Source of the DNA: a virus
Taxonomy: Duplodnaviria; Caudoviricetes
Length of the DNA: 59,239 bases
Virus record (IMG/VR): IMGVR_UViG_3300034064_000298
Location: 1 to 59,239 of that record
Strand: one strand, 5' to 3'
The position numbers and the translations under genes are program-made. The notes below the pieces were generated by a model. The model was not told the origin of the DNA. It did not search any database and saw only the letters and a program-made list of their open reading frames with translations. This document shows, piece after piece, positions 1-56,136 of this stretch (positions are counted from its first letter, which is position 1; each line of letters begins with the position of its first letter).

Positions 1-3000
1 ATTAACTTAGTAGCTTCTGATACGGTATATACTGGTAATGTCTCTGCTTCTGGTAATATTACTTCTAATATTATCACTGCGTCGAGTGCCAATATTACTA
101 CAGGCGAAGTTGGTAACTTAACAGTTAGTGGCACAACTAGTTTGGCTGGTAATATTATTAGTGACGTGGTTGTAAATGCCAACGTTACTGCGAATTACTT
201 TATAGGCGATGGTAGTCAGTTATCGAATATCTCAGCTAGTGGACTAGTGGGCGGATATACTAACGCTAATGTCGCGGCATACTTACCGGTATATACTGGC
301 AATATTACTGCAAATATTATTAGCACAACGGGCAATATTACCGGCGCGAATCTCAATACTGATGGTTCAATATTTGCTAATATATTATCAGGTAATACCA
401 TAAGCTCGTCTGGTAATATAGTATCAAACGGCACTTTTATTGGTACTAGCTTGCTTGTAAATGGTAATGCGAGCATTACTGGCAACGTTGAAATAACTGG
501 TAACTTAAACTATAATAGCGCACAAGATCTAATAGTAAGCGACCCGCTTATATTCATCGGCGCAAATAATACTGCGGATTTGCTTGACTTAGGCACGATT
601 GTAGAGTATGATACAGGTACGCAGCAATACGGCGGGTTTGTCCGAGATCACACTGATGGCACATGGCGCCTTTTCAGCGACTTGGTGACGATGCCGACTA
701 CGACTGTTGACTTTGCGAACGCCTCATACGCGCCTATCCAAGCCAGCGCGTTCATAGGCAACGGAGCCCAACTCACTGGCTTTGCGAACGTGGCTTTCAG
801 CGGGGAATATAATGACTTAGCGAATATACCAGTAATACCAACGACGACCAGTAACCTTATCAACGACTCGGGATATATTACTATCGGGAATGTTGCCAAC
901 TATTTGCCCACGTATGGCGGCAATATAAGCGGCACTATTACCACGAATAATCAACCATATATCAACCAGTTGGGCGTATTGTCGACTCTGAACGTAAGTG
1001 GGCTAACCACCACACACGCACTGTCGGTAACGGACCAGGCTACGGTGGGCAACTTAGTCGTCACTGGCAACGTGACACTGCCGGGCAACATCAACCAGAT
1101 ATCGGGCAACCAAGGTCAGTTCTTCGGTGACATATATGGCTTCGGCGCACTTTACGCTGGTGTGCCCTCTGGCTACGCAAACTTACCGGCTACTGTATTC
1201 CAAGTAACTGCTGACTACCCAGACTACGCCCAGATCAACTTCCAGAATATCAACCCTGGCAACGGCGCGAGTGCTGATTACGTGGTCACTGCCGACAACG
1301 GCACAAACAGCACCTACTTCGCTGACTTTGGTATAGCGTCTAGCGCGTTCGATGGGCTATCTCCAAACGCACTAGGCAACGTGGTCAAGGCAAACGACGC
1401 GTATCTCTACACGCTGGCTGACGGCAGCGCGAACGCTGGTGGCAACTTGATATTGGCTGCGGCTACCCCGACACGTTCAGTGATCGTAGCGGCAGGCGGC
1501 GGCACTTCGTCTGACGTAGTTGCTACCTTTAGCCCTGGTAACCTAAGTGTTACTGGTAATATAACCGGCTCATACTTATTCGGCAACGCTGCCTTCTTAA
1601 CTGGTTTACCAACACAATATAGTAATGCAAACGTAGCGGCATACTTACCGATATACACGGGCAATATTACGGCGAATACTATTAGTGCATCTGGCAACGT
1701 AACTGGCGCTAACTTAACAACAGCTGGTTTGGTTACTGCATCTGGTAATGTAACTGGCGGCAATATCAATACTGCTGGTTTAATATCAGCTAGTTTGGCT
1801 ACCGTATCTGGTAACGTTATAGGCGGTAACATAGTAACTGGTGGTTATGCTACTATTACTGGCAACGTTATTGCAGCGAATATTACTACAGGTGGTTTGA
1901 TATCTGCTGCGGGTAATATATTGACACTTAGTAACGCTTTGGTTAGTGGTTATGCTACTATTACTGGCAACGTTATTGGCGGTAATATTACTACAGCTGG
2001 TGAAGTAACTGCAACTGGTAATGTAACTGGTTCAAATATCAATACTGCTGGTTTAGCCACTATTACTGGTAATGTCATTGGTGGCAATATCAATACTGCT
2101 AATATAGTAACCGCCGGTGGTAATATTATTGGCGCTAACTTTGTAACTGCTGGCTTAGTAACTGCAGCTGGTAATGTAACTGGTGCAAATATCAATACTG
2201 CTGGACTAATAACTGCAACTGGCGGCATTACTGGCGGTTCATTCTCAACAGCTGGTTTTATTACTGCAACTGGCAATATTACCACTGCAGCGAACGTAAC
2301 TGCGTTGGGAGAGGCTAATATAACTGGCAACGTTATTGGCGGGAATATCACTACGGCTGGCTTAATAACTGCAACTGGTAATATCACCGGCGCTAACTTA
2401 GTAACAGCTGGAATAGCCACCATTACTGGTAATATACTGACAGCTAGTAACGTATTGGTTAGTGGTTATTCATCAACAACTGGTAATGTAACAGGCGCAA
2501 ATATCAATACTGCTGGCTTAATAACTGCAACTGGTAATATCACCGGCGGCAATATTATTACAGCGGGTGTATTATCCGTTGGTGGTAATATTATTGCCCC
2601 ATATCATATTGGTAATCTGGCAAATGGTACTTCTAGTATCAATATCGCTTCAGCGAATGCCAATATTCAGTTCATTGTTGCTAATACCAACGTAGGTACA
2701 CTATCTACTAATGCAGTCGCATTTGGTAATGGTGCAGGTGCAATACTACAAGGTAATACTAGTATTGCAATTGGTAATGCAGCAGGAAGCAATACTCAAG
2801 CTGCTAGTGCGATCGCTATTGGTAATAATGCAGGTGTTACTACACAGGGTGCTAATGCAATAGCTATTGGTAGATTAGCAGGCAATAATACCCAAGGCAC
2901 AAATGCTATTTCTATTGGACATAATTCTGGTAATGCGTTCCAGGGTGCAGGCGCTATAAGTATCGGTTCAGGCACAGGCTCGAATATTCAAGGCATAAAT

Positions 3001-5448
3001 TCTATTGCTATTGGTAATACCGCGGGTAATTATGTCCAACAAGGCAATAGTATTGCGATTGGGTATAATGCAGGTAATATCAACCAAGCCCAACTTAGTA
3101 TTGCTATGGGCTGGAATGCAGCAGGGTCTACTGTAACTGCAAATGGTAATGTGGTAGAGTTTAATGGTACTACGATGTCGATTCGAGGTACTTATGATAG
3201 AAACTTCATCGACACTATGTTACTATCGGGTAATGGCCTGGCAAATGCAACATACGTTACCGGCGTTTCTACTGGTGTATTCTCTAATGTGAAAATTGTT
3301 GGGAATGTACTTACATTAGCAGGGACGTTGACCAACTTCTACGCTCCGGTTGGTACGGTATTCTCTGGTAATACTATCACATTAGGAACGGTTGTAAGAG
3401 ACGTCAAGATAGCTACCATGCCTAACGCTTCCCTTAACGGCACTACACTGTCTGCTGGCACCGGAACCTCAGGTGAGCCTATTAGCGTTGGTATGTACCT
3501 AAACGCTTCAGGGTTAAGCCAAGGAGTTTACATTGTAAACAACATCAGTGGCAGCGGCGATAACTCTACATGGCAAGTTAGCCTATCTGGCGTCCTTTCG
3601 GCTAGAGCCTTTACCGGTAGATACTGGATAGTTGAACCTTCGCAGACCGTGAACGGGGTTAGTGCAAACATCATAAATTACGCGGTTAACCCAGCACATA
3701 CTGCAAATATAGCCAACGTTACAGGCTACACCGGCCAGGGAGTTCGCAGTATCGCTATCGGAGTCAGCGCCGGCGCAACATCGCAGCAATATAATTCAGT
3801 GGCTATCGGCTGGGCAGCTGGTCAAACAAACCAAAATTACAGCGCGGTTGCCATTGGACAAGGAGCTGGATCAACTTCTCAAGGAACTAACACGGTTGCA
3901 ATTGGCATAGGGGCCGGTGGAACTAATCAAGCAGGATCTGCGGTTGCAATTGGCCCTCAGGCTGGTGCGAACGCGCAAGGAGTTAACTCGGTTGCGATTG
4001 GTATCAACGCAGGAATCACAGGACAAGGACAGAACTCGGTAGCAGCAGGCACTAACGCAGGTTACACTAATCAAGGTATCCAATCGGTTGCTCTGGGACT
4101 AGGAGCTGGACAAACAACGCAAGGAGCGAGTTCGACTGCAGTTGGTGTATATGCCGGACAAACTGCACAAGGAGCGCAATCGGTTGCAATTGGAACCAGT
4201 GCAGGCACAGGTTCCCAAGGTGCCAGCTCAGTAGCTGTTGGCACAAATGCAGGAGCATCAGCTCAAGGAACATCTTCCGTTGCGATTGGACCCTTTGCAG
4301 CATATGTCACACAAGGTATATTCTCCACCGCGTTGGGTTCATATGCCGCATATGCAAACCAAGGTGCTCAAGCACACGCGATCGGATACACTTCAGGATA
4401 TCAAAATCAAGGATCTTCGTCAATAAGTATTGGCCATCAGGCCGCAACTTACTACCAGCTACCAAACTCGATAGCAATTGGGTTCCAAGCCGGTCAGAAC
4501 TATCAAGGAGCTCAGTCGATAGCCATCGGCACAGGTGCTGGTAAAGTGCCACAAGGCAATAATAGCATCGCAATAGGAACAGGAACTTGTTTTGCTGCGC
4601 TGAGTGCTTACGGCAACGTGTCTAACATTTCAGGCAACTTGTTGTCTATGGGAGGCAACCTATTCGCTGGTAACATCACGGTAGGCATGACAGTAACTGG
4701 TGCAGGTATAGTTGGCGGAACAAGAATCACTGCTCTTGGCACAGGTACAGGTAATGCTGGTACATACTTCGTGAACATATCGCAGAATGTTGCCAATACC
4801 ACTATTACCACTTACACAACTCAGGGTTCCAATACTGTATCGCTTGGATATCAAGCAGGGTATCAAGATCAAGGCAACAACGCTGTTGCTATCGGCTACC
4901 GAGCAGGTTATGCCAACCAATCAGCTAACTCAATAATCATTAACGCTGCCACAAACGCGCTGGATAGTACCTCTCCAGGACTATACGTCAATCCAGTACG
5001 CAGTGATTCTAGCAATACGACCAACTTTGTGTTCTATAATACTTCCTCAAAAGAGGTAAGCTATTCGAATGTTATAACTAATATCGCTGCCAATAGTATA
5101 ACAGGTACTGCTGCCAATAACGCGGTTACTATCGTAAGCTACAAATATGTTGTAACTACATCCTCGTATTCTGCGATATACACACCTGATCTAAGTGTTG
5201 GAACGGTGTTCAAGCTGACGTTGACGAATAATATTACCTTCAATAACTTTGGAGGCACTCCGCAAGCAGGTCAGTATGCGACATTTATATTCACTCAAGA
5301 TGCGACTGGTAATCGCACACTGACTTCGACGATGAAATTTGCAGGGGGTGTTAAGACACTGAGTACAGCAGGAGGAGCAGTAGATATTATGTATGTGTTC
5401 TTTGATGGAACAACATACTACGCAACATTAATGAAAGGATTCTCGTAA
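1..5448 (+). CDS. Giant tail fibre / adhesin-like virion protein, 5'-truncated at window edge
   Basis: Frame is open from base 1 (INLVASDTVYTGNVS...). It has many GN(I/V)(T/I)(G/A)(G/A)N repeats, then 15-aa S(V/I)AIG..AG...QG repeats resembling trimeric adhesin heads, and a C-terminal QDATGNRTL..GAVDI domain. Confidence 0.8.
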   Translation: MNLVASDTVYTGNVSASGNITSNIITASSANITTGEVGNLTVSGTTSLAGNIISDVVVNANVTANYFIGDGSQLSNISASGLVGGYTNANVAAYLPVYTGNITANIISTTGNITGANLNTDGSIFANILSGNTISSSGNIVSNGTFIGTSLLVNGNASITGNVEITGNLNYNSAQDLIVSDPLIFIGANNTADLLDLGTIVEYDTGTQQYGGFVRDHTDGTWRLFSDLVTMPTTTVDFANASYAPIQASAFIGNGAQLTGFANVAFSGEYNDLANIPVIPTTTSNLINDSGYITIGNVANYLPTYGGNISGTITTNNQPYINQLGVLSTLNVSGLTTTHALSVTDQATVGNLVVTGNVTLPGNINQISGNQGQFFGDIYGFGALYAGVPSGYANLPATVFQVTADYPDYAQINFQNINPGNGASADYVVTADNGTNSTYFADFGIASSAFDGLSPNALGNVVKANDAYLYTLADGSANAGGNLILAAATPTRSVIVAAGGGTSSDVVATFSPGNLSVTGNITGSYLFGNAAFLTGLPTQYSNANVAAYLPIYTGNITANTISASGNVTGANLTTAGLVTASGNVTGGNINTAGLISASLATVSGNVIGGNIVTGGYATITGNVIAANITTGGLISAAGNILTLSNALVSGYATITGNVIGGNITTAGEVTATGNVTGSNINTAGLATITGNVIGGNINTANIVTAGGNIIGANFVTAGLVTAAGNVTGANINTAGLITATGGITGGSFSTAGFITATGNITTAANVTALGEANITGNVIGGNITTAGLITATGNITGANLVTAGIATITGNILTASNVLVSGYSSTTGNVTGANINTAGLITATGNITGGNIITAGVLSVGGNIIAPYHIGNLANGTSSINIASANANIQFIVANTNVGTLSTNAVAFGNGAGAILQGNTSIAIGNAAGSNTQAASAIAIGNNAGVTTQGANAIAIGRLAGNNTQGTNAISIGHNSGNAFQGAGAISIGSGTGSNIQGINSIAIGNTAGNYVQQGNSIAIGYNAGNINQAQLSIAMGWNAAGSTVTANGNVVEFNGTTMSIRGTYDRNFIDTMLLSGNGLANATYVTGVSTGVFSNVKIVGNVLTLAGTLTNFYAPVGTVFSGNTITLGTVVRDVKIATMPNASLNGTTLSAGTGTSGEPISVGMYLNASGLSQGVYIVNNISGSGDNSTWQVSLSGVLSARAFTGRYWIVEPSQTVNGVSANIINYAVNPAHTANIANVTGYTGQGVRSIAIGVSAGATSQQYNSVAIGWAAGQTNQNYSAVAIGQGAGSTSQGTNTVAIGIGAGGTNQAGSAVAIGPQAGANAQGVNSVAIGINAGITGQGQNSVAAGTNAGYTNQGIQSVALGLGAGQTTQGASSTAVGVYAGQTAQGAQSVAIGTSAGTGSQGASSVAVGTNAGASAQGTSSVAIGPFAAYVTQGIFSTALGSYAAYANQGAQAHAIGYTSGYQNQGSSSISIGHQAATYYQLPNSIAIGFQAGQNYQGAQSIAIGTGAGKVPQGNNSIAIGTGTCFAALSAYGNVSNISGNLLSMGGNLFAGNITVGMTVTGAGIVGGTRITALGTGTGNAGTYFVNISQNVANTTITTYTTQGSNTVSLGYQAGYQDQGNNAVAIGYRAGYANQSANSIIINAATNALDSTSPGLYVNPVRSDSSNTTNFVFYNTSSKEVSYSNVITNIAANSITGTAANNAVTIVSYKYVVTTSSYSAIYTPDLSVGTVFKLTLTNNITFNNFGGTPQAGQYATFIFTQDATGNRTLTSTMKFAGGVKTLSTAGGAVDIMYVFFDGTTYYATLMKGFS

Positions 5449-6206: not shown

Positions 6207-6270
6207 TTTCTTTCTCCAGTTGTTTGTCTCTATGGGTGTAGTATAGCAGGTGGCGAAGAGGTGTCAAACT
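6207..6270 (-). repeat. Remote copy of the promoter-leader-RBS cassette repeat
   Basis: tttctttctccagttgtttgtctctatgggtgtagtatagcag matches the copy at 55360; TTGACA(6267-6262)-16 nt-TATACT(6245-6240). Confidence 0.9.
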
Positions 6271-13675: not shown

Positions 13676-15565
13676 TTACGCTGCTTCAGTGAACTGTGCA
13701 TCGACGACAGCATCATCGGCGGGGGAGGCACTCTCCGTCTCGTTTTTAGGAGTTGCATCCCTAACGATCTTACTAGCATCGAGAAGCTTTTCCGTTGCTT
13801 TCCTGATCTGCTGAAGGTCGTCACCAGACGTTGATTCCTCGACCTCCGAAAGGGCAGTCTCGATCTGATCAATATCGTCCGAACTAAGCCTGTCCTTGAC
13901 TTCAGAGAGTTCCTTCCTGATTTGATGAACATGTTGCTCTGCATGGTTTCTTGCCTCGATCAGTTCTTTCAGTTTCTTGTCAGACTCTGCGTTCATTTCA
14001 GCTTCATTTATCATACGCTTAATTTCAGCATCTGTCAAGCCAGAATCACTCTTAATTGTGATTTTATTTTGCTTACCAGAGGACTTGTCCTTTGCAGATA
14101 TATTCATAATGCCGTTGGCATCGATGTCAAACGTGACTTCAATTTGTGGTGTACCACGAGGCGCAGGTGGAATACCATTCAGGTCGAACTTGCCGAGTTG
14201 TTTATTGTAGCTGAACAATTCGCGTTCGCCCTGTGCTACGTTGATCGTCACAGCAGCCTGGTTATCCTCGGCTGTTGAAAATACCTGACTTGCCTTGGTA
14301 GGAATAGTGGTATTCTTTTCGATGAGTTTGGTAAATACACCTCCCATCGTTTCGATGCCTAAGGACAGAGGAGTCACGTCAAGTAACAATACATCTGTTT
14401 TTGTACCACCCAATACCGCGCCCTGTACCGCAGCACCAGCAGCAACAGCCTCATCTGGGTTCACATCTTTGCGAGGTGCCTTGTCAAACAGCTTTTCAAC
14501 TGCTTCTTGGACCTTGGGCATTCTAGTTTGCCCGCCAACCAATATAACCTCGTCGATATCTTTGGACGTAACTCCAGCATCTTTCAGTGCAGTTTTGCAT
14601 GGCGCAATGGTTCGCTCGATCAGATCTTCTACCATCGACTCGAACTTGGAGCGCGTGATGGTGATATCTAAATGCTTAGGTCCACTTGCATCCGCGGTAA
14701 CGTATGGTAGATTGATGCTTGTTTGTTGCGTACTCGATAGCTCAATCTTGGCTTTCTCTGCGGCATCTTTCAGACGTTGGAGCGCGAGCGTGTCATTCTT
14801 CAGATCGATGCCAGAGTCTTTCTTGAACTCGCTTACCAGATAGTCCATGAGGCGCTGGTCGAAGTCTTCACCGCCAAGCGCAGTGTCACCGTTGGTGGAT
14901 AGAACCTCAATCTGCTTTTCGCCATCGACGTTAATGATATCAATGATGGAGACGTCGAAGGTGCCGCCGCCTAAATCCCAGACCGCAATCTTTCGATCTT
15001 TTTTGTCTGCTTTGTCGACACCGTAGGCTAGAGCAGCTGCAGTAGGCTCATTGATGATGCGTAGAACCTCGAGTCCTGCTATTCTTCCAGCGTCCTTAGT
15101 AGCTTGACGCTGACTGTCGTTGAAATATGCAGGTACCGTGATAACCGCCTGTGTTACCTCGACTCCAAGATAGTCTTCGGCAGTCTTCTTCATCTTGCGT
15201 AAGACTTCAGCGGACACTTGCGGTGGGGCCAGTTCTTGTCCATTGGCTTTTACCCAAGCATCACCATTCTTCGCTTCGACAATCTCGTAAGGCATGAGGT
15301 CGATGTCTTTCTGGACCGCTTCTTCGGTGAACTTACGTCCGATCAAACGCTTTACGGCGTACAGGGTGTTCTTGGGGTTTGTTACTGACTGTCTTTTTGC
15401 GGAAGCACCTACCAATACTTCGTTGTCCGAGTATGCGATGATGGATGGAGTGGTTCTTGCGCCTTCTGCATTTTCGATGACTCGAGCGGAGCCATTTTCA
15501 AGAATTGCGACGCAGCTATTTGTAGTCCCGAGATCGATTCCCAGGATTGGGGTTGATTTGCTCAT
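13676..15565 (-). CDS. dnaK: Molecular chaperone DnaK (Hsp70)
   Basis: [43 protein letters not shown]-terminal VVDAQFTE; start at MSKSTP behind GGAGA RBS. Confidence 0.97.
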
Positions 15566-15619
15566 TTTGTAGTCTCCTATTTTGTAGCAAGATTTAGTTA
15601 TAGGCCCGAAAATCGGCAC
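15566..15619 (-). promoter_or_regulatory. ROSE-like leader in front of dnaK
   Basis: GUGCCGAuuuUCGGGC hairpin then UCUUGCUA..UAGGAGA, same layout as the hsp20 leader. Confidence 0.55.
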
Positions 15620-23961: not shown

Positions 23962-24020
23962 TTTCTCCTTTGCTTACGTTATGGGAGTAGTATAACAACA
24001 AGATGCACCACTGTCAACTT

Positions 24021-48791: not shown

Positions 48792-48856
48792 GTCGTCTCT
48801 CTCCGTTTGTTTACGTTATGGGAGTAGTATAGCGTCGTTGACCAGAGGTGTCAACT

Positions 48857-49354: not shown

Positions 49355-49517
49355 CTATCACAATGCCTGGAGTGCAGGTTAGCTTCTTCAAATCTTTGTT
49401 GTGCTGCTCTTTGAGAGCGATCAAATTCAACATCTGCTTGCACTCTTTCTCGGTGCTGAACTCACGGGCAAGAACGTCAGGGGTAGATACAAGATACATT
49501 GCCAAAATCCAACTCAT
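49338..49517 (-). CDS. Cassette gene (not in ORF track), 59 aa
   Basis: MSWILAMYLVSTPDVLAREFSTEKECKQMLNLIALKEQHNKDLKKLTCTPGIVIGDSDE, directly behind a repeat copy. Confidence 0.7.
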   Translation of the reverse strand: MSWILAMYLVSTPDVLAREFSTEKECKQMLNLIALKEQHNKDLKKLTCTPGIVIGDSDE

Positions 49518-49560
49518 CTTCTTTCTCCTGTTGTTTGTGTCTATGGGTGTAGTATAGCAG

Positions 49561-50223
49561 TTATTGCGAAACAGTCAACCTTTTATTGAACTCTTCTTCG
49601 GTCATTCGAACTCCTTTCACGTACCATTGTTTATCGCCGTTTGTGAATTCAACAGCAGGCCCATCCTCTCGGTGTATTTCGCCGTTTATGGCCCACAATT
49701 TGCCATGTTTAGCTTCCATGGCAGGTCCATCTTCTCGATGCTGTTTGCCGTTTACCCAATACTCTTTGTGTCCATCAGGATACTCGACGGCAGGTCCATC
49801 TACACGATGACGTTTGTCATTTAGGTACCACTTTTTGGCGCCATCTGCTTCCTCCATAGCAGGTCCATCTACGCGATGAAGTTTGCCGTTTTGATACCAC
49901 TCGTTTGTACCCCAAGAATATTCGATAGCAGGTCCATCTACGCGATGAAGTTTGCCGTTTCGATACCACTCCTTGGTGCCATCTGCATCCTCCATAGCAG
50001 GTCCATCTATCCTGTGAAGTTTGCCGTTTCGATACCAAAACTTGCTGCCATCTGCCCATTCAATCGCAGGTCCATCTACTCGATGAAGTTTGCCGTTTAG
50101 CCGCCACTCTTTGCAGCCATCTGCGTATACAACAGCTGGGCCATCTTCGTTGTGAAGTTTGCCATTGAGGCGCCACTCTGATCTTCCAGCTGTTTCTGAT
50201 ATGGTATATTCGGACATCGTCAT
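49561..50223 (-). CDS. HREDGPA-repeat protein, 8 repeats
   Basis: 23-aa repeat H(R)(E/V)DGPA.E..DG.K.W..NGK; tail MTEEEFNKRLTVSQ. Confidence 0.9.
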   Translation of the reverse strand: MTMSEYTISETAGRSEWRLNGKLHNEDGPAVVYADGCKEWRLNGKLHRVDGPAIEWADGSKFWYRNGKLHRIDGPAMEDADGTKEWYRNGKLHRVDGPAIEYSWGTNEWYQNGKLHRVDGPAMEEADGAKKWYLNDKRHRVDGPAVEYPDGHKEYWVNGKQHREDGPAMEAKHGKLWAINGEIHREDGPAVEFTNGDKQWYVKGVRMTEEEFNKRLTVSQ

Positions 50224-50265
50224 TCTCCAAGATGTTTTGTGTCTATGGGTGTAGTATAGCAGTTA

Positions 50266-50808
50266 TCAAGGAACAGTCAACCTTTTGTTGAACTCTTCTT
50301 CAGTCATTTGAACTCCGTTCACATACCACTTTTTATCGCCGTTTGCATACTCAACAGCTGGTCCATCTACTCGGTGTCGTTTGCCATTTACCCAATACTC
50401 TTTGTTGCCATAGGACTCCCATCCTACTTTGCCTGGTGGAACTTCGATAGCTGGGCCATCTTCTCTATGACATTTGCCATCCACAAACCAAATTTTGGTG
50501 CCATCTGCAAGATCGAAAGCTGGTCCATCTACTCGGTGATATTTGCCATTTACCCAATACTCTTTGGTGCCATCAAGACGCTCAAACGATGGTCCGTCCA
50601 CGCGATGACGTTCTCCATTCAACCACCATTCTGTGGTGCCATCTGCACCTTCGACTGCAGGGCCGTCTTCTCTGTGACGTTTGTCATTTACCCACCATTC
50701 CTTTCTGCCATCTGCCCACACCAAGGCTGGTCCGTCTTCTCGATGTCGTTTGCCATTGAAAAGCCACTCCGTCATTGTATCAGTTTCTTTTTTGGTATAT
50801 CCGATCAT
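50266..50808 (-). CDS. HREDGPA-repeat protein, 6 repeats (start MIGYTK)
   Basis: Same repeat, one unit carrying an 8-aa insertion; tail EEEFNKRLTVP. Confidence 0.9.
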   Translation of the reverse strand: MIGYTKKETDTMTEWLFNGKRHREDGPALVWADGRKEWWVNDKRHREDGPAVEGADGTTEWWLNGERHRVDGPSFERLDGTKEYWVNGKYHRVDGPAFDLADGTKIWFVDGKCHREDGPAIEVPPGKVGWESYGNKEYWVNGKRHRVDGPAVEYANGDKKWYVNGVQMTEEEFNKRLTVP

Positions 50809-50852
50809 CGCCAATCTCCTAGCTGTTTGCGTTTATGGCAGTATAGCAGTCA

Positions 50853-51167
50853 TCAAGGAACAGTCAACCTTTTATTGAACTCTTCTTCAGTCATTTGAAC
50901 TCCGTTAACGTACCATTCCTTTCTGCCATCGGCCCAATCGATCGCAGGTCCATCCTCTCTGTGAGGTCTGCCGTTTACCCACCATGATTTAGAGCCATCT
51001 GCGTATTCAGCCGCAGGTCCATCTTCTCGATGTTGTTTGCCGTTCATGAACCAATACTTACTGCCATCAGCCCATTCAATCGCAGGTCCATCTTCTCTGC
51101 CTAGTTTACCGTTTAGATACCAAAACTTGGTGCCAGCTATTTCTTGCATATATGCAGTCATCATCAT
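50853..51167 (-). CDS. HREDGPA-repeat protein, 3 repeats
   Basis: Same repeat; tail EEEFNKRLTVP. Confidence 0.9.
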   Translation of the reverse strand: MMMTAYMQEIAGTKFWYLNGKLGREDGPAIEWADGSKYWFMNGKQHREDGPAAEYADGSKSWWVNGRPHREDGPAIDWADGRKEWYVNGVQMTEEEFNKRLTVP

Positions 51168-51225
51168 TCTCCTGTTGCTTTACGACTATGGGTGTAGTGA
51201 AGCAGTCATCAAGGAACAGTCAACC

Positions 51226-51390
51226 TTATTTTACTTCTCTGGTTGAACCGATTTCCCAATCCTCGACCTTGTACATTGCCTTCATGAGTTGCCTTGCTCT
51301 GACCATATCCGGTGCAGATACTGTGACGTCGATTCTCCCTACGTAATTGGATGTTTTTATGGTTACGGGTGCGGTCCATTGTTTGTTCAT
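51226..51390 (-). CDS. Cassette gene (not in ORF track), 54 aa
   Basis: MNKQWTAPVTIKTSNYVGRIDVTVSAPDMVRARQLMKAMYKVEDWEIGSTREVK. Confidence 0.6.
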   Translation of the reverse strand: MNKQWTAPVTIKTSNYVGRIDVTVSAPDMVRARQLMKAMYKVEDWEIGSTREVK

Positions 51391-51403
51391 GTGCTTTCTC
51401 TGT

Positions 51404-51730
51404 TTAGATGATTTTTACTTTGTATCCGAGCATCTTCTCGATCTCGGCTAGAGTTAGCTCAACTGGTTCTGATGTTACTGCCTTTAGATTCTGCTGAAGA
51501 ACGCTCTTGGCGAGTCGAAAAGGTAAGGAGAAGTCAGTCTCGCTGTGAATAGGCGGCGTTACGTTCACCCATTCTTTATCATACTCCGAGAATCTCTGTA
51601 GCTTTTTCGTTGCCTCATCCCACTGCAGTTTGGTTCCTTGTTTGAACGTGATTTTCCAGCAACCCGCTGATATTGCAAATGAATTGGTTACGACGTAATC
51701 ACCTGAGGTGGGAAAGGTACGAGTAGTCAT
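51404..51730 (-). CDS. Cassette gene, hypothetical
   Basis: 108 aa; C-terminal ELTLAEIEKMLGYKVKII; partial repeat upstream. Confidence 0.7.
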   Translation of the reverse strand: MTTRTFPTSGDYVVTNSFAISAGCWKITFKQGTKLQWDEATKKLQRFSEYDKEWVNVTPPIHSETDFSLPFRLAKSVLQQNLKAVTSEPVELTLAEIEKMLGYKVKII

Positions 51731-51770
51731 TGTTTTCTCCTAGCTGTTTGTGTCTATGATGTCGTCTAGC

Positions 51771-51998
51771 TTAGTATGCCAACACCTCAACTACCTGTGT
51801 CAGGTATGCCCAATGAGAATCCTTTGTGCCGATATCGATGTAGTCGATGCCAGGCTGGCCGTTTTTGATGTTGCTGTCGGTATAGGTTACCTTAGCTTGT
51901 CTTGCGATACCGTTGCCAAAGTTGCCGCGTACCATCACGAGACTGCCTTCGCGGATGTCCTTGAGTCCTACTGCTTTGGTTTTCTTGAAGGTCATCAT
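51771..51998 (-). CDS. Cassette gene, hypothetical (possible SH3-like fold)
   Basis: 75 aa directly behind a repeat copy. Confidence 0.7.
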   Translation of the reverse strand: MMTFKKTKAVGLKDIREGSLVMVRGNFGNGIARQAKVTYTDSNIKNGQPGIDYIDIGTKDSHWAYLTQVVEVLAY

Positions 51999-52065
51999 CT
52001 TCTTTCTCCAGTTGTTTGTCTCTATGGGTGTAGTATAGCAGTTATTGAGAAAGTGTCAACTCTTT

Positions 52066-52335
52066 TTAGTCCCATACGCGATGTTTTTCAGCAACCCATT
52101 CCCTACCATCGTAGTCTTCTATCTGCCATTCAACGTCGTCTGGTACTTCCACGATCTTCAAAGAGGCAAATTGACCACCAGCCACTAGCCCTAGTTCCTC
52201 TACAATCTGAACCAGATATGGATCAGCTCTATCATGATGACGATCTACGTTTTTACCTGTCAATTCAAAGTATCTTTTAGTAGCTTGTTTGGATAATCCA
52301 AATCCACCATACTGAGCGTTGATTACTATTTTCAT
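52066..52335 (-). CDS. Cassette gene, conserved phage hypothetical
   Basis: MKIVIN..YGGFGLS...EWVAEKHRVW; paralog of the C-terminal domain of 16844-17371. Confidence 0.8.
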   Translation of the reverse strand: MKIVINAQYGGFGLSKQATKRYFELTGKNVDRHHDRADPYLVQIVEELGLVAGGQFASLKIVEVPDDVEWQIEDYDGREWVAEKHRVWD

Positions 52336-52403
52336 TCTTCTTTCTCCAGTTGTTTGTCTCTATGGGTGTAGTATAGCAGTTATTGAGAAAGTGTCAACCT
52401 TTT

Positions 52404-52865
52404 TTACCAGCTAGATCGATAAGTGACTGTCCAGTTCCAGCCTATATCCTCCCCTAGGTCTTCTAGGAACGATCTAAGCTCTTGTTTCGTGAGTTCAAGA
52501 TCTGCCCAATACCCTTCCGTCATTTCGGAGGAGCCAAAAAAGAATCCCTCGCATGGTGGCAACAACTCGGCGGCCAGCTCCTTTGAGCCTCCTATCTTTT
52601 CTAGGGTACGAAGTAGATCATCCAAATGTTCCAAGGTCACCTCGTATGCCCTACAGTCATCTACGCCATTCTGTACGTTCTTGACAAACCAGTTATGAAT
52701 GGCATTTGCCTTGCGCCAATACATTACTTGATACTCTAGACCTGTCAGCTGCATGCCATACCGAGTGTTTTCCGTGAGTTCCGCTATTTTCTCAATCAAC
52801 TCCTGGTCTTTGGAATTTAGGCTGCTGAGGTATTTGCGAGCGTGAAGATACATATCAAGGCCCAT
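52404..52865 (-). CDS. Cassette gene, conserved phage hypothetical
   Basis: MGLDMYL, YWRKANAIHNWF, LP..EGFFFGS, Y.SSW. Confidence 0.8.
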   Translation of the reverse strand: MGLDMYLHARKYLSSLNSKDQELIEKIAELTENTRYGMQLTGLEYQVMYWRKANAIHNWFVKNVQNGVDDCRAYEVTLEHLDDLLRTLEKIGGSKELAAELLPPCEGFFFGSSEMTEGYWADLELTKQELRSFLEDLGEDIGWNWTVTYRSSW

Positions 52866-52902
52866 TTTCTTTCTCCTGTTTATTTGAGGTATAGTGTAGC
52901 AG

Positions 52903-53085
52903 TTATTGAGGAAGTGTCAACCTTTTATTGAACTCTTCTTCGGTTATTTGTTCTCCGTTTACCCACCACTCTTTGGTGCCATCAGATCGCTCAACCGCCG
53001 GGCCTGTCGTGTGATGAAGTTTGCTATCTCGATACCGCTCTATAGTGCCATCAGGATAGATGTTTATGGAATGTCCACTCGCCAT
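52903..53085 (-). CDS. HREDGPA-family protein, 1 repeat
   Basis: HHTTGPAVERSDGTKEWWVNG; tail ITEEEFNKRLTLPQ. Confidence 0.8.
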   Translation of the reverse strand: MASGHSINIYPDGTIERYRDSKLHHTTGPAVERSDGTKEWWVNGEQITEEEFNKRLTLPQ

Positions 53086-53094
53086 ATTACTCTC

Positions 53095-53310
53095 CTACTC
53101 GGCAGTCGGCGAGAGAACTTGAACTAATGAATCGTCGTACCACCCTTCAAAGGTGTAGTAGTTGAATGATGCGACCAGATTGCCTTTGGCAAAACCTAGC
53201 CAGCCATTGATGCGACCGTTACTGTCGTCAAACAACTCTTCATGATCGAAGGTGTCGTCGTCGAACATATCAAAGAAGTCGTCTTCATCATTGTATATTT
53301 CAGTAATCAT
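53095..53310 (-). CDS. Cassette gene, very acidic small protein
   Basis: 71 aa, D/E/F-rich N-terminus. Confidence 0.65.
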   Translation of the reverse strand: MITEIYNDEDDFFDMFDDDTFDHEELFDDSNGRINGWLGFAKGNLVASFNYYTFEGWYDDSLVQVLSPTAE

Positions 53311-53353
53311 TGGTGTTCTCCAGCTGTTTGCGTCTATGGGTGTAGTGTAGCAG

Positions 53354-53656
53354 TTATCGAGAAAGTGTCAATTCTTCTTCGGTTATTTCAACTCCGTTTA
53401 TATACCAGTACTTGGTGCCATCTGCATATTCCATGGCAGGCCCATCTACGCGATGAATTTTTCCGTTTACCCACCACTCTTTGTATCCATCCTCCCATTC
53501 AACCGCAGGCCCATCTTCTCTGTGCAGTTTGCCGTGTCTATACCAATACTTACTGCCATCTGCATATTCAATCGCAGGTCCATCTTCACGATGAAGTTTG
53601 TCGTCTAGGTACCAAAACTTGTCGCCGTTTATTTCTTTGGTAGTATATCCGGTCAT
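53354..53656 (-). CDS. HREDGPA-repeat protein, 3 repeats
   Basis: Head MTGYTTKEINGDKFWYLD; tail EEELTLSR. Confidence 0.9.
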   Translation of the reverse strand: MTGYTTKEINGDKFWYLDDKLHREDGPAIEYADGSKYWYRHGKLHREDGPAVEWEDGYKEWWVNGKIHRVDGPAMEYADGTKYWYINGVEITEEELTLSR

Positions 53657-53699
53657 CTTCTTTCTCCAGCTGTTTGCGTCTATGGGTGTAGTATAGCAG

Positions 53700-54083
53700 T
53701 TATTGAGAAAGTGTCAACCTTTTATTGAATTCTTCTTCGGTTATTTGTTCTCCATTTATCCACCACTCTTTGTTGCCATCTGCGTATTCGACGGCCGGTC
53801 CATCCTCTCGTTGGATCTCACCGTTTATATACCAGAATTTGGTGCCATCATAGATTTCAATCGCAGGTCCGTCCTCACAATGTACTAGGCCGTTTAGATA
53901 CCAAAATTTGGTGCCATTGGGGTATTCAATAGCAGGTCCATCCACTCGATGTCGTTTGCCGTTTATATACCAATACTTGTTGCCATCTGCCCATTCGATC
54001 GCAGGTCCATCCTCTCGATGGAGTTCGCCATCAAGGCGCCACTCTGTTTTATACTCGTCTGTAGATATAGTATATCCGGTCAT
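53700..54083 (-). CDS. HREDGPA-repeat protein, 4 repeats
   Basis: Head MTGYTISTDEYKTEWRLDGEL; tail EEEFNKRLTLSQ. Confidence 0.9.
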   Translation of the reverse strand: MTGYTISTDEYKTEWRLDGELHREDGPAIEWADGNKYWYINGKRHRVDGPAIEYPNGTKFWYLNGLVHCEDGPAIEIYDGTKFWYINGEIQREDGPAVEYADGNKEWWINGEQITEEEFNKRLTLSQ

Positions 54084-54126
54084 CTTCTTTCTCCAGCTGT
54101 TTGCGTCTATGGGTGTAGTATAGCAG

Positions 54127-54441
54127 TTATTGAGAAAGTGTCAACCTTTTGTCGAACTTTTCTTTGGTCATTTGTTTTCCGTCTATGAACCACTTCTTGG
54201 TGCCATTTGCTCGTATGACCGCAGGTCCATCTACCCTGTGAGGTTTGCCGTCTATATACCACTCTTTGGTGCCATCTGCAGCTTCAAACGCAGGTCCATC
54301 TACTCTGTTAAGTTTGCCGTTTCTATACCACCTCTTGGTGCCACTTGCAAGTTCAACCGCTGGGCCGTCTTCTCTGTTAAATTTGCCGTCTAGGTACCAA
54401 AACTTGTCGCCGTTTATTTCTTTGATAGTATATCCGGTCAT
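54127..54441 (-). CDS. HREDGPA-repeat protein, 3 repeats
   Basis: Head MTGYTIKEINGDKFWYLD; tail KFDKRLTLSQ. Confidence 0.9.
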   Translation of the reverse strand: MTGYTIKEINGDKFWYLDGKFNREDGPAVELASGTKRWYRNGKLNRVDGPAFEAADGTKEWYIDGKPHRVDGPAVIRANGTKKWFIDGKQMTKEKFDKRLTLSQ

Positions 54442-54484
54442 CTTCTTTCTCCAGTTGTTTGCGTCTATGGGTGTAGTATAGCAG

Positions 54485-55144
54485 TTATTGAGGAAGTGTC
54501 AACCTTTTGCTGAACTCTTCCTCAGTTATTTCAACTCCGTTTAACCACCATTCTGTGGTGCCATCTGCCCATTCGATCGCAGGTCCATCCTCTCTGTTAA
54601 GTTTGCCGTTTCTATACCACCTCTTGGTGCCATCTGCCCATTCAGATGCAGGTCCATCTTCTCTGTGTTTTAAGCCGTTTACCCACCATTCTTTGGAGCC
54701 ATCTGCGTATTCAGCCGCAGGTCCATCTTCTCTGTGTTCTTTGCCGTTTACCCACCATTCTTTGGAGCCATCTGCCCATTCAACAGCAGGTCCATCTTCT
54801 CGGTGTCGTTTGTCGTCTATATGCCAAAACTTGCTGCCATTTGCCCATTCGACCGCAGGTCCATCTTCTCTGCCTAGTTTACCGTTTAGATACCAAAACT
54901 TGGTGCCATCTGCCCATTCGACCGCAGGTCCATCTACTCTGTGTCGTTTGCCATTTAGATACCAAAACTTGCTGCCATCTGCCCATTCAGATGCAGGTCC
55001 ATCTTCTCTGTGTTTTAAGCCGTTTACCCACCAATACTTGTTGCCATCTGCCCATTCGATCGCAGGTCCATCCTCTCGATGGAGTTCGCCATCAAGGCGC
55101 CACTCTGTTTTATAGTCGTCTGTAGTTATGGTATATCCGGTCAT
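54485..55144 (-). CDS. HREDGPA-repeat protein, 8 repeats (start MTGYTIT)
   Basis: GGAGAAAGAAG RBS before the ATG at 55144; tail EEEFSKRLTLPQ. Confidence 0.9.
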   Translation of the reverse strand: MTGYTITTDDYKTEWRLDGELHREDGPAIEWADGNKYWWVNGLKHREDGPASEWADGSKFWYLNGKRHRVDGPAVEWADGTKFWYLNGKLGREDGPAVEWANGSKFWHIDDKRHREDGPAVEWADGSKEWWVNGKEHREDGPAAEYADGSKEWWVNGLKHREDGPASEWADGTKRWYRNGKLNREDGPAIEWADGTTEWWLNGVEITEEEFSKRLTLPQ

Positions 55145-55164
55145 CTTCTTTCTCCGCTTATGTC

Positions 55165-55359
55165 TTAGAATTTTTCGGTAGCAGGAGCGCCAACTGCATG
55201 TTTCATGCCATAGGTGTACCACTCTTTGTAGCCATCGGCTTGTGCTGTCGAGGTGTCTTCAGCCCATTCGGTAGCAGGTTCAATATCAGTGTAGGGGTTA
55301 GGTCCGTAGCCTGCAATTTCATACTCGTCGATTTCGTAGGTAGTGATTGCTGCTTTCAT
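55165..55359 (-). CDS. Cassette gene with degenerate repeat remnant
   Basis: PATEWAE...ADGYKEWY..G.KH...APA. Confidence 0.55.
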   Translation of the reverse strand: MKAAITTYEIDEYEIAGYGPNPYTDIEPATEWAEDTSTAQADGYKEWYTYGMKHAVGAPATEKF

Positions 55360-55425
55360 TTTCTTTCTCCAGTTGTTTGTCTCTATGGGTGTAGTATAGC
55401 AGATGTTGAAGGAGTGTCAACCTTT

Positions 55426-56136
55426 TTAGCGCCAATTTTCAAAAATAATTTGATCATTGATCTGATGTGGCTTAGGCTCGCCGTGGCAAATGATGACGGA
55501 TGTGTCGTTCACGTTTGGAGCAGCGTTGACGTCTCTATAACTCTTCAGTGCGAAGTCGTATCCACCTTGTACCACTTCCCAGCGCCAGGACTTCACTCCA
55601 CCTTCAAAAAATCGTCGACTACTAGTAGGTATAACGTCCGATAAGTAATCCTGATCTCCCTTATACATTCCGGTAATAGTAGGTAAATGGCATTTAGAGA
55701 ATCTCTTCCATATATGATGATATACAGTAGTGTCCCACCACATCATACTCGAGTTGATACCCATGAAGTTAGGTCGCCATAATGCTTTGAAGTCCTTTAT
55801 AGCCCATAAGCAATGAGTAGGTAATTGCCAAACCCAATCAATACTATCGGTTATAACGACATCGAGATCAAAGTATAATAATGGGCCTGAGTAATGCTCG
55901 GAGTTGAATAACTGCATCTTATACCACCAGGCATACTTATCTTGAATCCCATTCCAGGGTATCAGCGAGTGTTTTACCATATACTCAGGTACATCTCTAG
56001 ATTCTTCGGTATATACATGGAATACTACCGGCACAGTTAGGTTTCTACTTACCATATTGTACAGTTTATCCACATATTCCCAGGAATACCCATTCCCATG
56101 TATTACGCAAGCTATGTTTATATTGTAATCATCCAT
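55426..56136 (-). CDS. Glycosyltransferase (GT-A fold, GT8-like; start MDDYNI)
   Basis: WWYKMQLF, YFDLD, NSSMM.W, GDQD, HGEPKP. Confidence 0.8.
   Translation of the reverse strand: MDDYNINIACVIHGNGYSWEYVDKLYNMVSRNLTVPVVFHVYTEESRDVPEYMVKHSLIPWNGIQDKYAWWYKMQLFNSEHYSGPLLYFDLDVVITDSIDWVWQLPTHCLWAIKDFKALWRPNFMGINSSMMWWDTTVYHHIWKRFSKCHLPTITGMYKGDQDYLSDVIPTSSRRFFEGGVKSWRWEVVQGGYDFALKSYRDVNAAPNVNDTSVIICHGEPKPHQINDQIIFENWR

Follow-up and report, generated by a model that had tools for sequence, protein, structure and literature searches.

The question raised by the virus record IMGVR_UViG_3300034064_000298 of IMG/VR, which was analysed over its entire length of 59,239 bases (hereafter the window), concerns a row of small genes at 49561-55144 that are built from one repeated unit. 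What do such proteins do, and how did one phage come to hold so many variants of them? A first-pass annotation had described eight paralogs with 8, 6, 3, 1, 3, 4, 3 and 8 repeats and had proposed a library of early-expressed modular binders. The answer that we favour, with somewhat better than even confidence, is that they are early-expressed intracellular protein binders diversified by recombination. New in this work are the 12 promoter cassettes within 6 kb, the genes that end inside the next promoter, the mosaic paralogs, the pattern of constraint, the arrays in Burkholderiales and the outcome of a comparison with the virion proteome of Agrobacterium phage Atu_ph07.

All eight genes lie on the minus strand with the unit numbers listed above, and a ninth, remnant gene was added to them (Table 1). 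Anchored on the DGPA motif, the HRxDGPA units number 36 in total. The eight open reading frames (ORFs) are intact, and a tblastn search of the entire record limited the family to 49.5-55.1 kb. The single 69-bp, 23-residue unit in a fixed frame was likewise borne out, the spacing within genes being exactly 23 residues in 26 of 28 cases (exceptions 22 and 31), and Tandem Repeats Finder (TRF) reported six 69-nt arrays with scores of 197-571 and 69-80% matches. Conservation per position was counted over the units of regular length, 34 in number: all of them have G5, P6 and G13, and the counts are 33 for D4 and for A7, 32 for W17, and 31 for each of R2, K15 and G21. The most variable positions are 8, 10, 14, 16, 18, 19, 22 and 23, with an entropy of 1.6-2.9 bits. 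They had been described as mostly aromatic or charged, which holds for positions 10, 16 and 18 only, the other five being aliphatic or small polar. The proteins start with a half unit (…K-x-W-x-L-N/D-G-x-x) and end in (I/M)TEEEF-N-K-R-L-T-(L/V)-(S/P)-(Q). The acidic TEEEF cap, previously taken as shared by all, is exact in six of the eight genes, with TEEEL in gene 5 and TKEKF in gene 7. Seven of the eight proteins are acidic, their WYF content is 8-16%, and no hydrophobic segment or signal peptide was seen in any (maximum KD19 at most 0.25); we infer a cytoplasmic location.

The genes are accompanied by a promoter cassette of near-consensus sigma-70 type, composed of TTGAC(A/T), a 16-nt spacer and a TG-extended -10 box, TA(T/C)ACT. 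The search pattern TTGAC(A/T)-N13-TGCTA(T/C)ACT, with at most one mismatch, found 13 sites in the window where 0.03 would be expected; every one is on the minus strand, and 12 fall within 49,551-55,420. In a generic promoter scan the cassettes scored 10-11 of 12, and 11 combined the 16-nt spacer with the TG-extended -10 box. The promoter is followed by a leader of ~35 nt, near-identical between copies, which carries a GGAG Shine-Dalgarno sequence and ends in GGAGAAAGAAG-ATG. Six of the eight repeat genes lie directly behind a cassette of their own, and genes 4 and 8 are second in two-gene units, following a 71-aa acidic ORF and the remnant gene, respectively. Every repeat gene (8/8) stops inside the -35/spacer region of the next cassette, which none of the four non-repeat genes preceding a cassette does. 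The last codons, AGG TTG ACA CTT TCT CAA TAA (R L T L S Q stop), contain the -35 box of the downstream promoter, and the final residues K-R-L-T-L/V-S/P-Q correspond to its -35 box and spacer. In relatives elsewhere the TEEEF(N) cap is kept and the sequence after it differs, which fits a tail dictated by the promoter. With six genes directly behind a host-type promoter and two second in their units, the early expression proposed at first pass is plausible, and it is from this layout that we infer the timing.

Six cassettes were folded and gave no conserved stem-loop (z -1.61 to +1.84), nor was any terminator-like site found at the cassettes, with three such sites in 8 kb against 6.6 expected. 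The spacer sequence CUUUCUC is complementary to the Shine-Dalgarno GAGAAAG and could mask it in read-through transcripts (e.g. 53657-53717, minus strand). This anti-Shine-Dalgarno pairing was rejected as a candidate: it appears in some folds, which are not significant, and is absent from the cassettes of genes 1-3. The Shine-Dalgarno sequence of every cassette contains GGAG, the motif at which the endonuclease RegB of phage T4 cleaves early mRNA. Copies or relatives of the cassette also occur outside the array, at 6240-6267, 23979-23998 and 48826-48854 on the minus strand, one before a 334-aa ATPase gene and two deep in the replication block.

The pattern of substitution separates the frame from the variable positions. 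Over all 561 unit pairs pN/pS was 0.44, with synonymous sites near saturation (pS 0.57). In 11 close, non-overlapping unit pairs it was 0.88 at the eight variable positions, a value biased upward by the choice of this class for its variability, and 0.17 at the other fifteen. Conservation of the frame is strong, and substitutions at the variable positions are almost unrestricted. The dN/dS check suggested at first pass does not bear out diversifying selection, the value at the variable sites not exceeding 1 and resembling relaxed constraint on a fixed frame.

Comparison of whole genes points to exchange between them. Between genes 6 and 8, identity is 90-100% over positions -15 to +105 relative to the ATG and drops to ~70% beyond them; between genes 5 and 7 it is 97-100% from position -60 across promoter and leader as well as the first 45-60 nt, and again ~70% further on. 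For only 9 of the 36 units does the closest relative lie within the same gene, and tandem duplication at the scale of whole genes was detected as well (Table 1). Such sharp breaks in identity indicate that the paralogs are mosaics, produced by recombination or gene conversion rather than by steady divergence. Contigs from three lake-water runs, which belong to three studies (X2, X3 and X6), contain the exact sequence again. In these runs and in a fourth, X9, the contigs cover 49400-55500 as pieces of 225-972 nt only; among the pieces listed, those of X2, X3 and X6 show no differences and those of X9 a few, with no indels. Many contig joints have short sides (20-73 nt), possibly from other paralogs, and no rearrangement was drawn from them. 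This fragmentation agrees with the 37-fold enrichment of MORN repeats in long-read marine viral data, and their under-recovery by short-read assembly, described in the available passage of PMC9238414.

The predicted fold is that of MORN-like beta-hairpins. An AlphaFold2 (AF2) model of the gene 6 protein, built with 28 aligned relatives (alignment A1), reached a predicted local distance difference test score (pLDDT) of 95.3 and a predicted template modelling score (pTM) of 0.84, and consists of short strands and tight turns with a C-terminal helix at residues 116-126. The ESM Atlas models of genes 6 and 8 had a pLDDT of 0.88 and 0.92; a single-sequence AF2 model of gene 8 (pLDDT 59) was not used. 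Foldseek against the PDB returned almost exclusively MORN proteins at the top, namely MORN4-Myo3a (6jle, E 1e-3), MORN1 (6t68, 6t69 and 6t4d), junctophilin and radial-spoke proteins, at a template modelling (TM) score of ~0.45. An exhaustive aligner independent of Foldseek placed 6jle first (Z 7.3, root mean square deviation 4.5 Å, 112 residues). The structural definition of MORN, tandem beta-hairpins of ~23 residues in an elongated single-layer sheet, is matched by the unit spacings, by the all-beta hairpin model and by the top fold matches. We take this single-layer beta-hairpin solenoid, as modelled, as a likeness of fold class, which is strengthened because the 23-residue period and the W…G…H…G pattern are also common to MORN. 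The MORN-variant fold anticipated at first pass is supported to that extent, MORN4, MORN1 and junctophilin standing at the top of both fold searches. By strand alternation, read off the DSSP string of the gene 6 model and not measured, the variable positions would lie on both faces, 8, 10, 19 and 22 with W17 and H1, and 16, 18 and 23 with R2 and E9. A homodimer prediction with two copies of the gene 6 protein and alignment A1 scored 0.00 against a mark of 0.42, which says nothing either way.

Judged by sequence, the repeat proteins are not members of MORN or MORN_2. Pfam MORN (PF02493) gave no row for any of the nine proteins at E<=1. For MORN_2/YwqK (PF07661) the best scores, in two of the nine, were 19.8 and 15.8 bits against a gathering cut-off of 29.6, and a six-frame search gave no match at E<=0.01. 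The 27-bit cut-off of Pfam DUF6745 (PF20530) was passed by four of the eight repeat proteins (53.4, 43.8, 36.6 and 30.0 bits), over positions ~63-96 of 206 only. PHROGs held no family for proteins 1 and 6, the two submitted; NCBIfam gave chance-level rows far under the cut-offs, and single-protein and profile searches of PDB sequences found nothing meaningful (best E 0.41). With DUF6745 set aside, the nearest named ESM Atlas look-alikes were YwqK/MORN_2 clusters, with a feature score of 0.89 and a structure TM of 0.89 by query, scores below 0.9 counting as leads only. The kinship with YwqK suggested at first pass stands as such a lead, whereas Pfam membership fails.

Relatives are abundant in viral sequence. 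In one search 7,983 of 8,000 scored candidates matched, and an exhaustive search of 50%-identity clusters gave 28,884 matches at E<=1e-3, 15,389 at <=1e-10 and 1,787 at <=1e-30; the nearest ESM Atlas clusters are 94-100% viral. Among 50,697 phage records only five matched, from two cultured phages, Celeribacter phage P12053L (two) and Atu_ph07 (two), and from one uncultured phage (one). The P12053L relatives lie among small left-end genes, between thyX and primase/helicase. Arrays whose unit number varies occur in further viral contigs; one example (L014, from a 211-kb contig) carries nine paralogs of 4, 6, 8, 3, 4, 3, 4, 6 and 3 units with a different cap, packed 4-5 nt apart, none with a promoter of its own. 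Among the 57 long relatives scanned, a partial DUF6745 match that passes the cut-off was the only one in 37; single cases add LRV/HEAT, ankyrin, EF-hand plus tail collar, RepB-primase C-terminal domain and DUF7666. Around homologues of the neighbouring ATPase no repeat ORF was found in 80 loci (34 of at least 10 kb), and therefore the place of the array is lineage-specific. Many small relatives in alignment A1 (P0057, P0061, P0065, P0093, P0116 and others) have an extra C-terminal module after the TEEEF cap, …C-x-G-K-x-V-E-I-D-G-K-K-Y-x-L, from which the repeat proteins of the window are free.

Cellular genomes hold the repeat too. A search of species-representative genomes gave 382 pattern matches, of which 219 encode relatives, and 77 loci were kept; ORFs were examined in 15 of these, and 90 non-repeat ORFs from 12 loci were scanned with Pfam. 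Three isolates, Janthinobacterium sp. RB2P8, Duganella qianjiadongensis CY13W and Acidovorax sp. SUPP3334, carry 7, 7 and 1 repeat genes in mobilization operons. These Burkholderiales genes overlap by 4 nt, have a SEEEFN cap in common, and are flanked by a NikA/MobC-like gene and an MbeA-like relaxase (E 1e-31, N-terminal 340-370 residues); helix-turn-helix (HTH) genes and orphan N6/N4 methylases lie nearby. By tblastn against all stored loci, the two mobilization proteins occur in those three only. Other cellular loci adjoin serine recombinases or an integrase. In three Rhodospirillales, one of them a Magnetovibrio, a single relative of 5-8 units lies in conserved synteny between ATP sulfurylase and the beta subunit of APS reductase (AprB). 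The repeat scaffold is general, and arrays are a feature of mobile elements.

Atu_ph07 allowed a comparison with purified virions. Seven matching places were found in six annotated genes, gp51, gp81, gp88, gp243, gp379 and gp588. The gp numbering was mapped through the main text of PMC6102473 and through anchors agreeing in product and mass, namely gp20 (internalin), gp42 (mega protein), gp69, gp70 (primase/helicase), gp72, gp76, gp80 (UvsW-like), coding sequence 242 (nicotinate phosphoribosyltransferase), gp377 (49.7 kDa), gp381 (20.0 kDa), gp586 (PnuC) and gp587 (NadR). Supplementary Table S5 of that study lists 131 virion-associated proteins, from virions that were purified with polyethylene glycol only. 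None of the six relatives is among those 131, so that in this cultured relative the proteins do not appear as structural virion components, the outcome that the first-pass annotation had named as fatal to its proposal.

In the model that we favour, the eight genes and the decayed one would be independently promoted early genes for small, soluble, mostly acidic cytoplasmic proteins. In each product, 1 to 8 MORN-like hairpins would make up a twisted beta-sheet one layer thick, capped by a strand at the N terminus and by an acidic helix (TEEEFNKRL) at the C terminus. The frame is built by the invariant residues (H-R-x-D-G-P-A, E9, D12-G13, K15, W17 and N20-G21), eight other positions per unit are nearly free, and the number of units sets the length of the surface. 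The proteins would most likely serve as adaptors or inhibitors that bind host, or possibly phage, proteins soon after infection. A leader, an ORF and the promoter that drives the following gene make each gene a cassette complete in itself. Since the coding tail is the next promoter and the cassettes are near-identical, exchange between cassettes and between 69-nt units would duplicate, delete and reshuffle genes. A broader and rather doubtful extension is that one library of MORN-like binders, driven by recombination, is common to phages and mobilizable elements and serves, on cell entry, to put variable host factors out of action, for instance defence effectors; new lengths and surfaces of binders would then keep arising through unequal exchange between cassettes and 69-nt units.

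Several points weigh against early binders diversified by recombination. Binding is a putative role, and early timing is predicted from the promoter consensus. No positive selection was found at the variable sites, so that an arms race finds no support in substitution rates, which with near-saturated pS and a class chosen by its variability are themselves weak evidence. The fold matches are middling (TM ~0.45, Z <8) and may reflect a common arrangement only. The single-copy chromosomal relative in Rhodospirillales means that the repeat is not specific to mobile elements, and the Atu_ph07 relatives are distant, with 35-50% identity over parts.

The alternatives differ mainly in the partner that they assume. 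In a special case of the binder model the array would be an anti-defence or antitoxin-like repertoire, each paralog neutralising a different host effector or toxin in the manner of YwqK, and we regard this narrower version as unlikely. The Atlas scores of YwqK clusters (0.89 and TM 0.89) that suggest it are leads only, and the MORN_2 scores under the Pfam threshold, together with the empty six-frame search, count against it. Early-type promoters, a number and sequence of paralogs that vary between related phages, and arrays in two kinds of mobile element where establishment functions are expected (relaxase loci, with methylases and HTH genes nearby) would suit it well. However, no toxin or defence gene adjoins the array, PADLOC, which covers the defence side, gave no match (nothing below E 0.06), pN/pS is not above 1, and no phage anti-defence protein of MORN-like type turned up in the literature searches. 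A distinctly improbable alternative is that the proteins are scaffolds for phage machinery, binding replication, nucleotide-metabolism or assembly proteins of the phage instead of host proteins. It is suggested by the array being co-oriented with, and directly upstream of, a block with helicase, polymerase, primase, ribonucleotide reductase, ligase and DnaK, and by the domains fused to long relatives (LRV/HEAT, ankyrin, EF-hand plus tail collar and RepB primase C-terminal domain, one each of 57); yet the array is not kept beside the ATPase gene (0/80 loci), and conserved phage partners are a poor fit to the rapid turnover in number and sequence.

Less probable again is a near-neutral selfish expansion, in which cassettes multiply through recombination between promoter repeats to little benefit of the phage. 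Near-neutral pN/pS at eight positions per unit, the gene-scale tandem duplications, the decayed copy and recombinogenic promoter repeats, as in the shuffling of promoter-early stem-loop (PeSL) cassettes described in PMC4122927, are what it would predict. It is opposed by eight intact ORFs on a constrained scaffold (0.17), by conservation of the family across tens of thousands of clusters and by the recurrence of the exact sequence in runs X2, X3 and X6. We give little credit to membrane- or lipid-associated adaptors, for instance in superinfection exclusion or envelope remodelling. Membrane and lipid association was first proposed for eukaryotic MORN repeats, and lipid binding by MORN repeats has itself been questioned. 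The likeness to junctophilin and MORN1 and the aromatic-rich surface point that way, but the lack of a signal peptide or hydrophobic segment does not, and an acidic character in seven of eight proteins is unfavourable at anionic bacterial membranes. Least credible are virion or injected structural proteins, which would rest on weak fold rows for phage baseplate or spike pieces (9cuy, Z 6.0; 6orj, Z 5.5) and on the one long relative with a tail collar domain; the early-type promoters, the small size, the location in the replication block and the absence of all six Atu_ph07 relatives from Table S5 of PMC6102473 speak against them.

Among characterised systems, eukaryotic MORN proteins (MORN4-Myo3a, 6jle; MORN1 of Trypanosoma, Toxoplasma and Plasmodium, 6t68, 6t69 and 6t4d; junctophilin, 7rxe) share the 23-residue period and the single-layer beta-hairpin sheet, and by eye the phage pattern W-x-x-(N)G-x-x-H...G...G can be aligned with the MORN signature. 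In contrast to them, the phage proteins have no Pfam MORN match, carry a distinct HRxDGPA motif and a TEEEF helix cap, are very small (1-8 units), stand alone and are encoded in arrays, and the structural match is only TM ~0.45 and Z 7.3. YwqK/MORN_2, a bacterial MORN variant whose mode of action is to bind a protein and block it, is closest among the named Atlas clusters, at the level of a lead, whereas the array proteins stay under the Pfam cut-off without a six-frame match and form paralog arrays instead of one gene; no cognate toxin or defence family was found next to the array, the neighbours being other small ORFs. DUF6745 was matched above its cut-off by four of the eight window proteins and 37 of the 57 long relatives, but over a repeat-like segment and not the domain. 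It is a family without known function, and a full-text literature search gave no paper naming it. Large DNA viruses reportedly expand interaction repeats as well, with multigene families of MORN, ankyrin and other repeat proteins in giant viruses. Clusters from giant viruses occur among the structural look-alikes (TM 0.78-0.81); the array differs in its bacterial host, its far smaller proteins and a bacterial promoter per gene.

The PeSL cassettes of T4-type phages are repeated early promoters in plastic regions, with recombinogenic repeats and shuffling, according to PMC4122927. The array resembles them in having sigma-70 promoters of near-perfect sequence that recur among small, variable ORFs in a plastic region, a plausible substrate of modular shuffling, and in the neighbouring ATPase, which matches mostly T4-like phages (1,306 records). 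Compared with PeSL as described there, the array cassettes are without a stem-loop, and have a 16-nt spacer, a TG-extended -10 box and a -35/spacer region inside the coding tail of the upstream gene. Literature searches on MORN with phage, anti-defence or YwqK brought up, among the texts available, one relevant passage, that on long-read enrichment (PMC9238414).

With 28,884 clusters, the HRxDGPA repeat is among the larger uncharacterised protein families of metagenomes, and its near-absence from cultured phages (5/50,697 records) would explain why it has no known function. The variable arrays in large phages and in mobilization operons of cultivable Burkholderiales are experimentally tractable entry points, and the promoter-in-coding-tail layout shows how a phage gene family can be both strongly expressed and recombinogenic.

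Table 1. Positions of the repeat genes, promoter cassettes and related loci (window coordinates unless a locus is named)
Feature	Position	Strand	Remarks
Repeat gene 1	49561..50223	-	220 aa, 8 units (unit 7 of 22 aa), cap MTEEEFNKRLTVSQ; Pfam DUF6745 partial, 53.4 bits
Repeat gene 2	50266..50814	-	6 units, unit 5 with 8-residue insertion; likelier start ATG 50808 (MIGYTKK...)
Repeat gene 3	50853..51167	-	104 aa, 3 units
Repeat gene 4	52903..53085	-	60 aa, 1 unit; second gene after 71-aa acidic ORF
Repeat gene 5	53354..53656	-	100 aa, 3 units; head type B (MTGYTTKEINGDKFWYLD), 92% nt identity with gene 7 head
Repeat gene 6	53700..54083	-	127 aa, 4 units; head type A, 95% nt identity with gene 8 head; protein modelled
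Repeat gene 7	54127..54441	-	104 aa, 3 units; sole basic member, isoelectric point (pI) 9.5
Repeat gene 8	54485..55144	-	219 aa, 8 units; second gene after 64-aa remnant gene; Atlas model pLDDT 0.92
Ninth, remnant gene	55165..55359	-	64 aa, degenerate unit (ADGYKEWYTYGMKHAVGAPATE); first gene of two-gene unit with gene 8
Promoter cassettes (12), span	49551..55420	-	
Promoter cassettes, copies 1-6	49551-49578, 50253-50280, 50840-50867, 51196-51223, 52032-52059, 52370-52397	-	
Promoter cassettes, copies 7-12	52893-52920, 53344-53371, 53690-53717, 54117-54144, 54475-54502, 55393-55420	-	
Gene-scale tandem duplication	53641..54735	-	TRF periods 427 and 358 nt, each one gene plus one cassette
Mobilization-operon arrays	L018 3480-8409 (Janthinobacterium), L034 2514-7230 (Duganella), L059 5735-7799 (Acidovorax)		ORF and Pfam scans
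Rhodospirillales single-copy relatives	L048 3800-4534, L063 3959-4717, L068 3992-4750		chromosomal

The record has a CheckV completeness of 17%, and the full genome would be ~350 kb if that figure holds. The window encodes a DnaK homologue, both subunits of ribonucleotide reductase, polymerase pieces, a primase, an ATP-dependent ligase, a DNA helicase and a DnaB-like helicase, nearly all of them on the minus strand between ~6 and 55 kb; the array is the head of this long leftward block of replication and nucleotide-metabolism genes. The 334-aa ATPase gene directly downstream of the array has matches in 1,306 phage records, all below 60% identity, mostly T4-like phages (of enterobacteria, Vibrio, Acinetobacter and Aeromonas) and PA5oct-like jumbo phages. 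A megablast of 7 kb against phage records gave no match, and thus no near-identical phage record. The phage DNA was listed in 24 lake-water metagenome runs of 24 studies, 12 of them with at least half of the sampled words, and no RNA run is among the 24. The carrier of the array is best explained as a large, uncultured, T4-related lake-water phage.

The 71-aa ORF that precedes gene 4 (53095-53310, minus strand) is hyper-acidic and aromatic-rich (pI 4.05, net charge -16, WYF 19.7%). It has its own promoter cassette and, from the layout, is co-transcribed with the one-unit gene. No family was found for it in Pfam, PHROGs or PADLOC, and our guess would be a DNA-mimic-like protein or a decoy. On the opposite strand, an ORF of more than 1,768 aa (1-5448, plus strand), without a Pfam or PHROG family, extends past the start of the window. 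The DnaK homologue (13676-15619, minus strand) is full-length; phage-labelled records include gammaproteobacterial DnaK to which it is 67-71% identical, and DnaK homologues are also carried by huge uncultured phages and by Lak phages.

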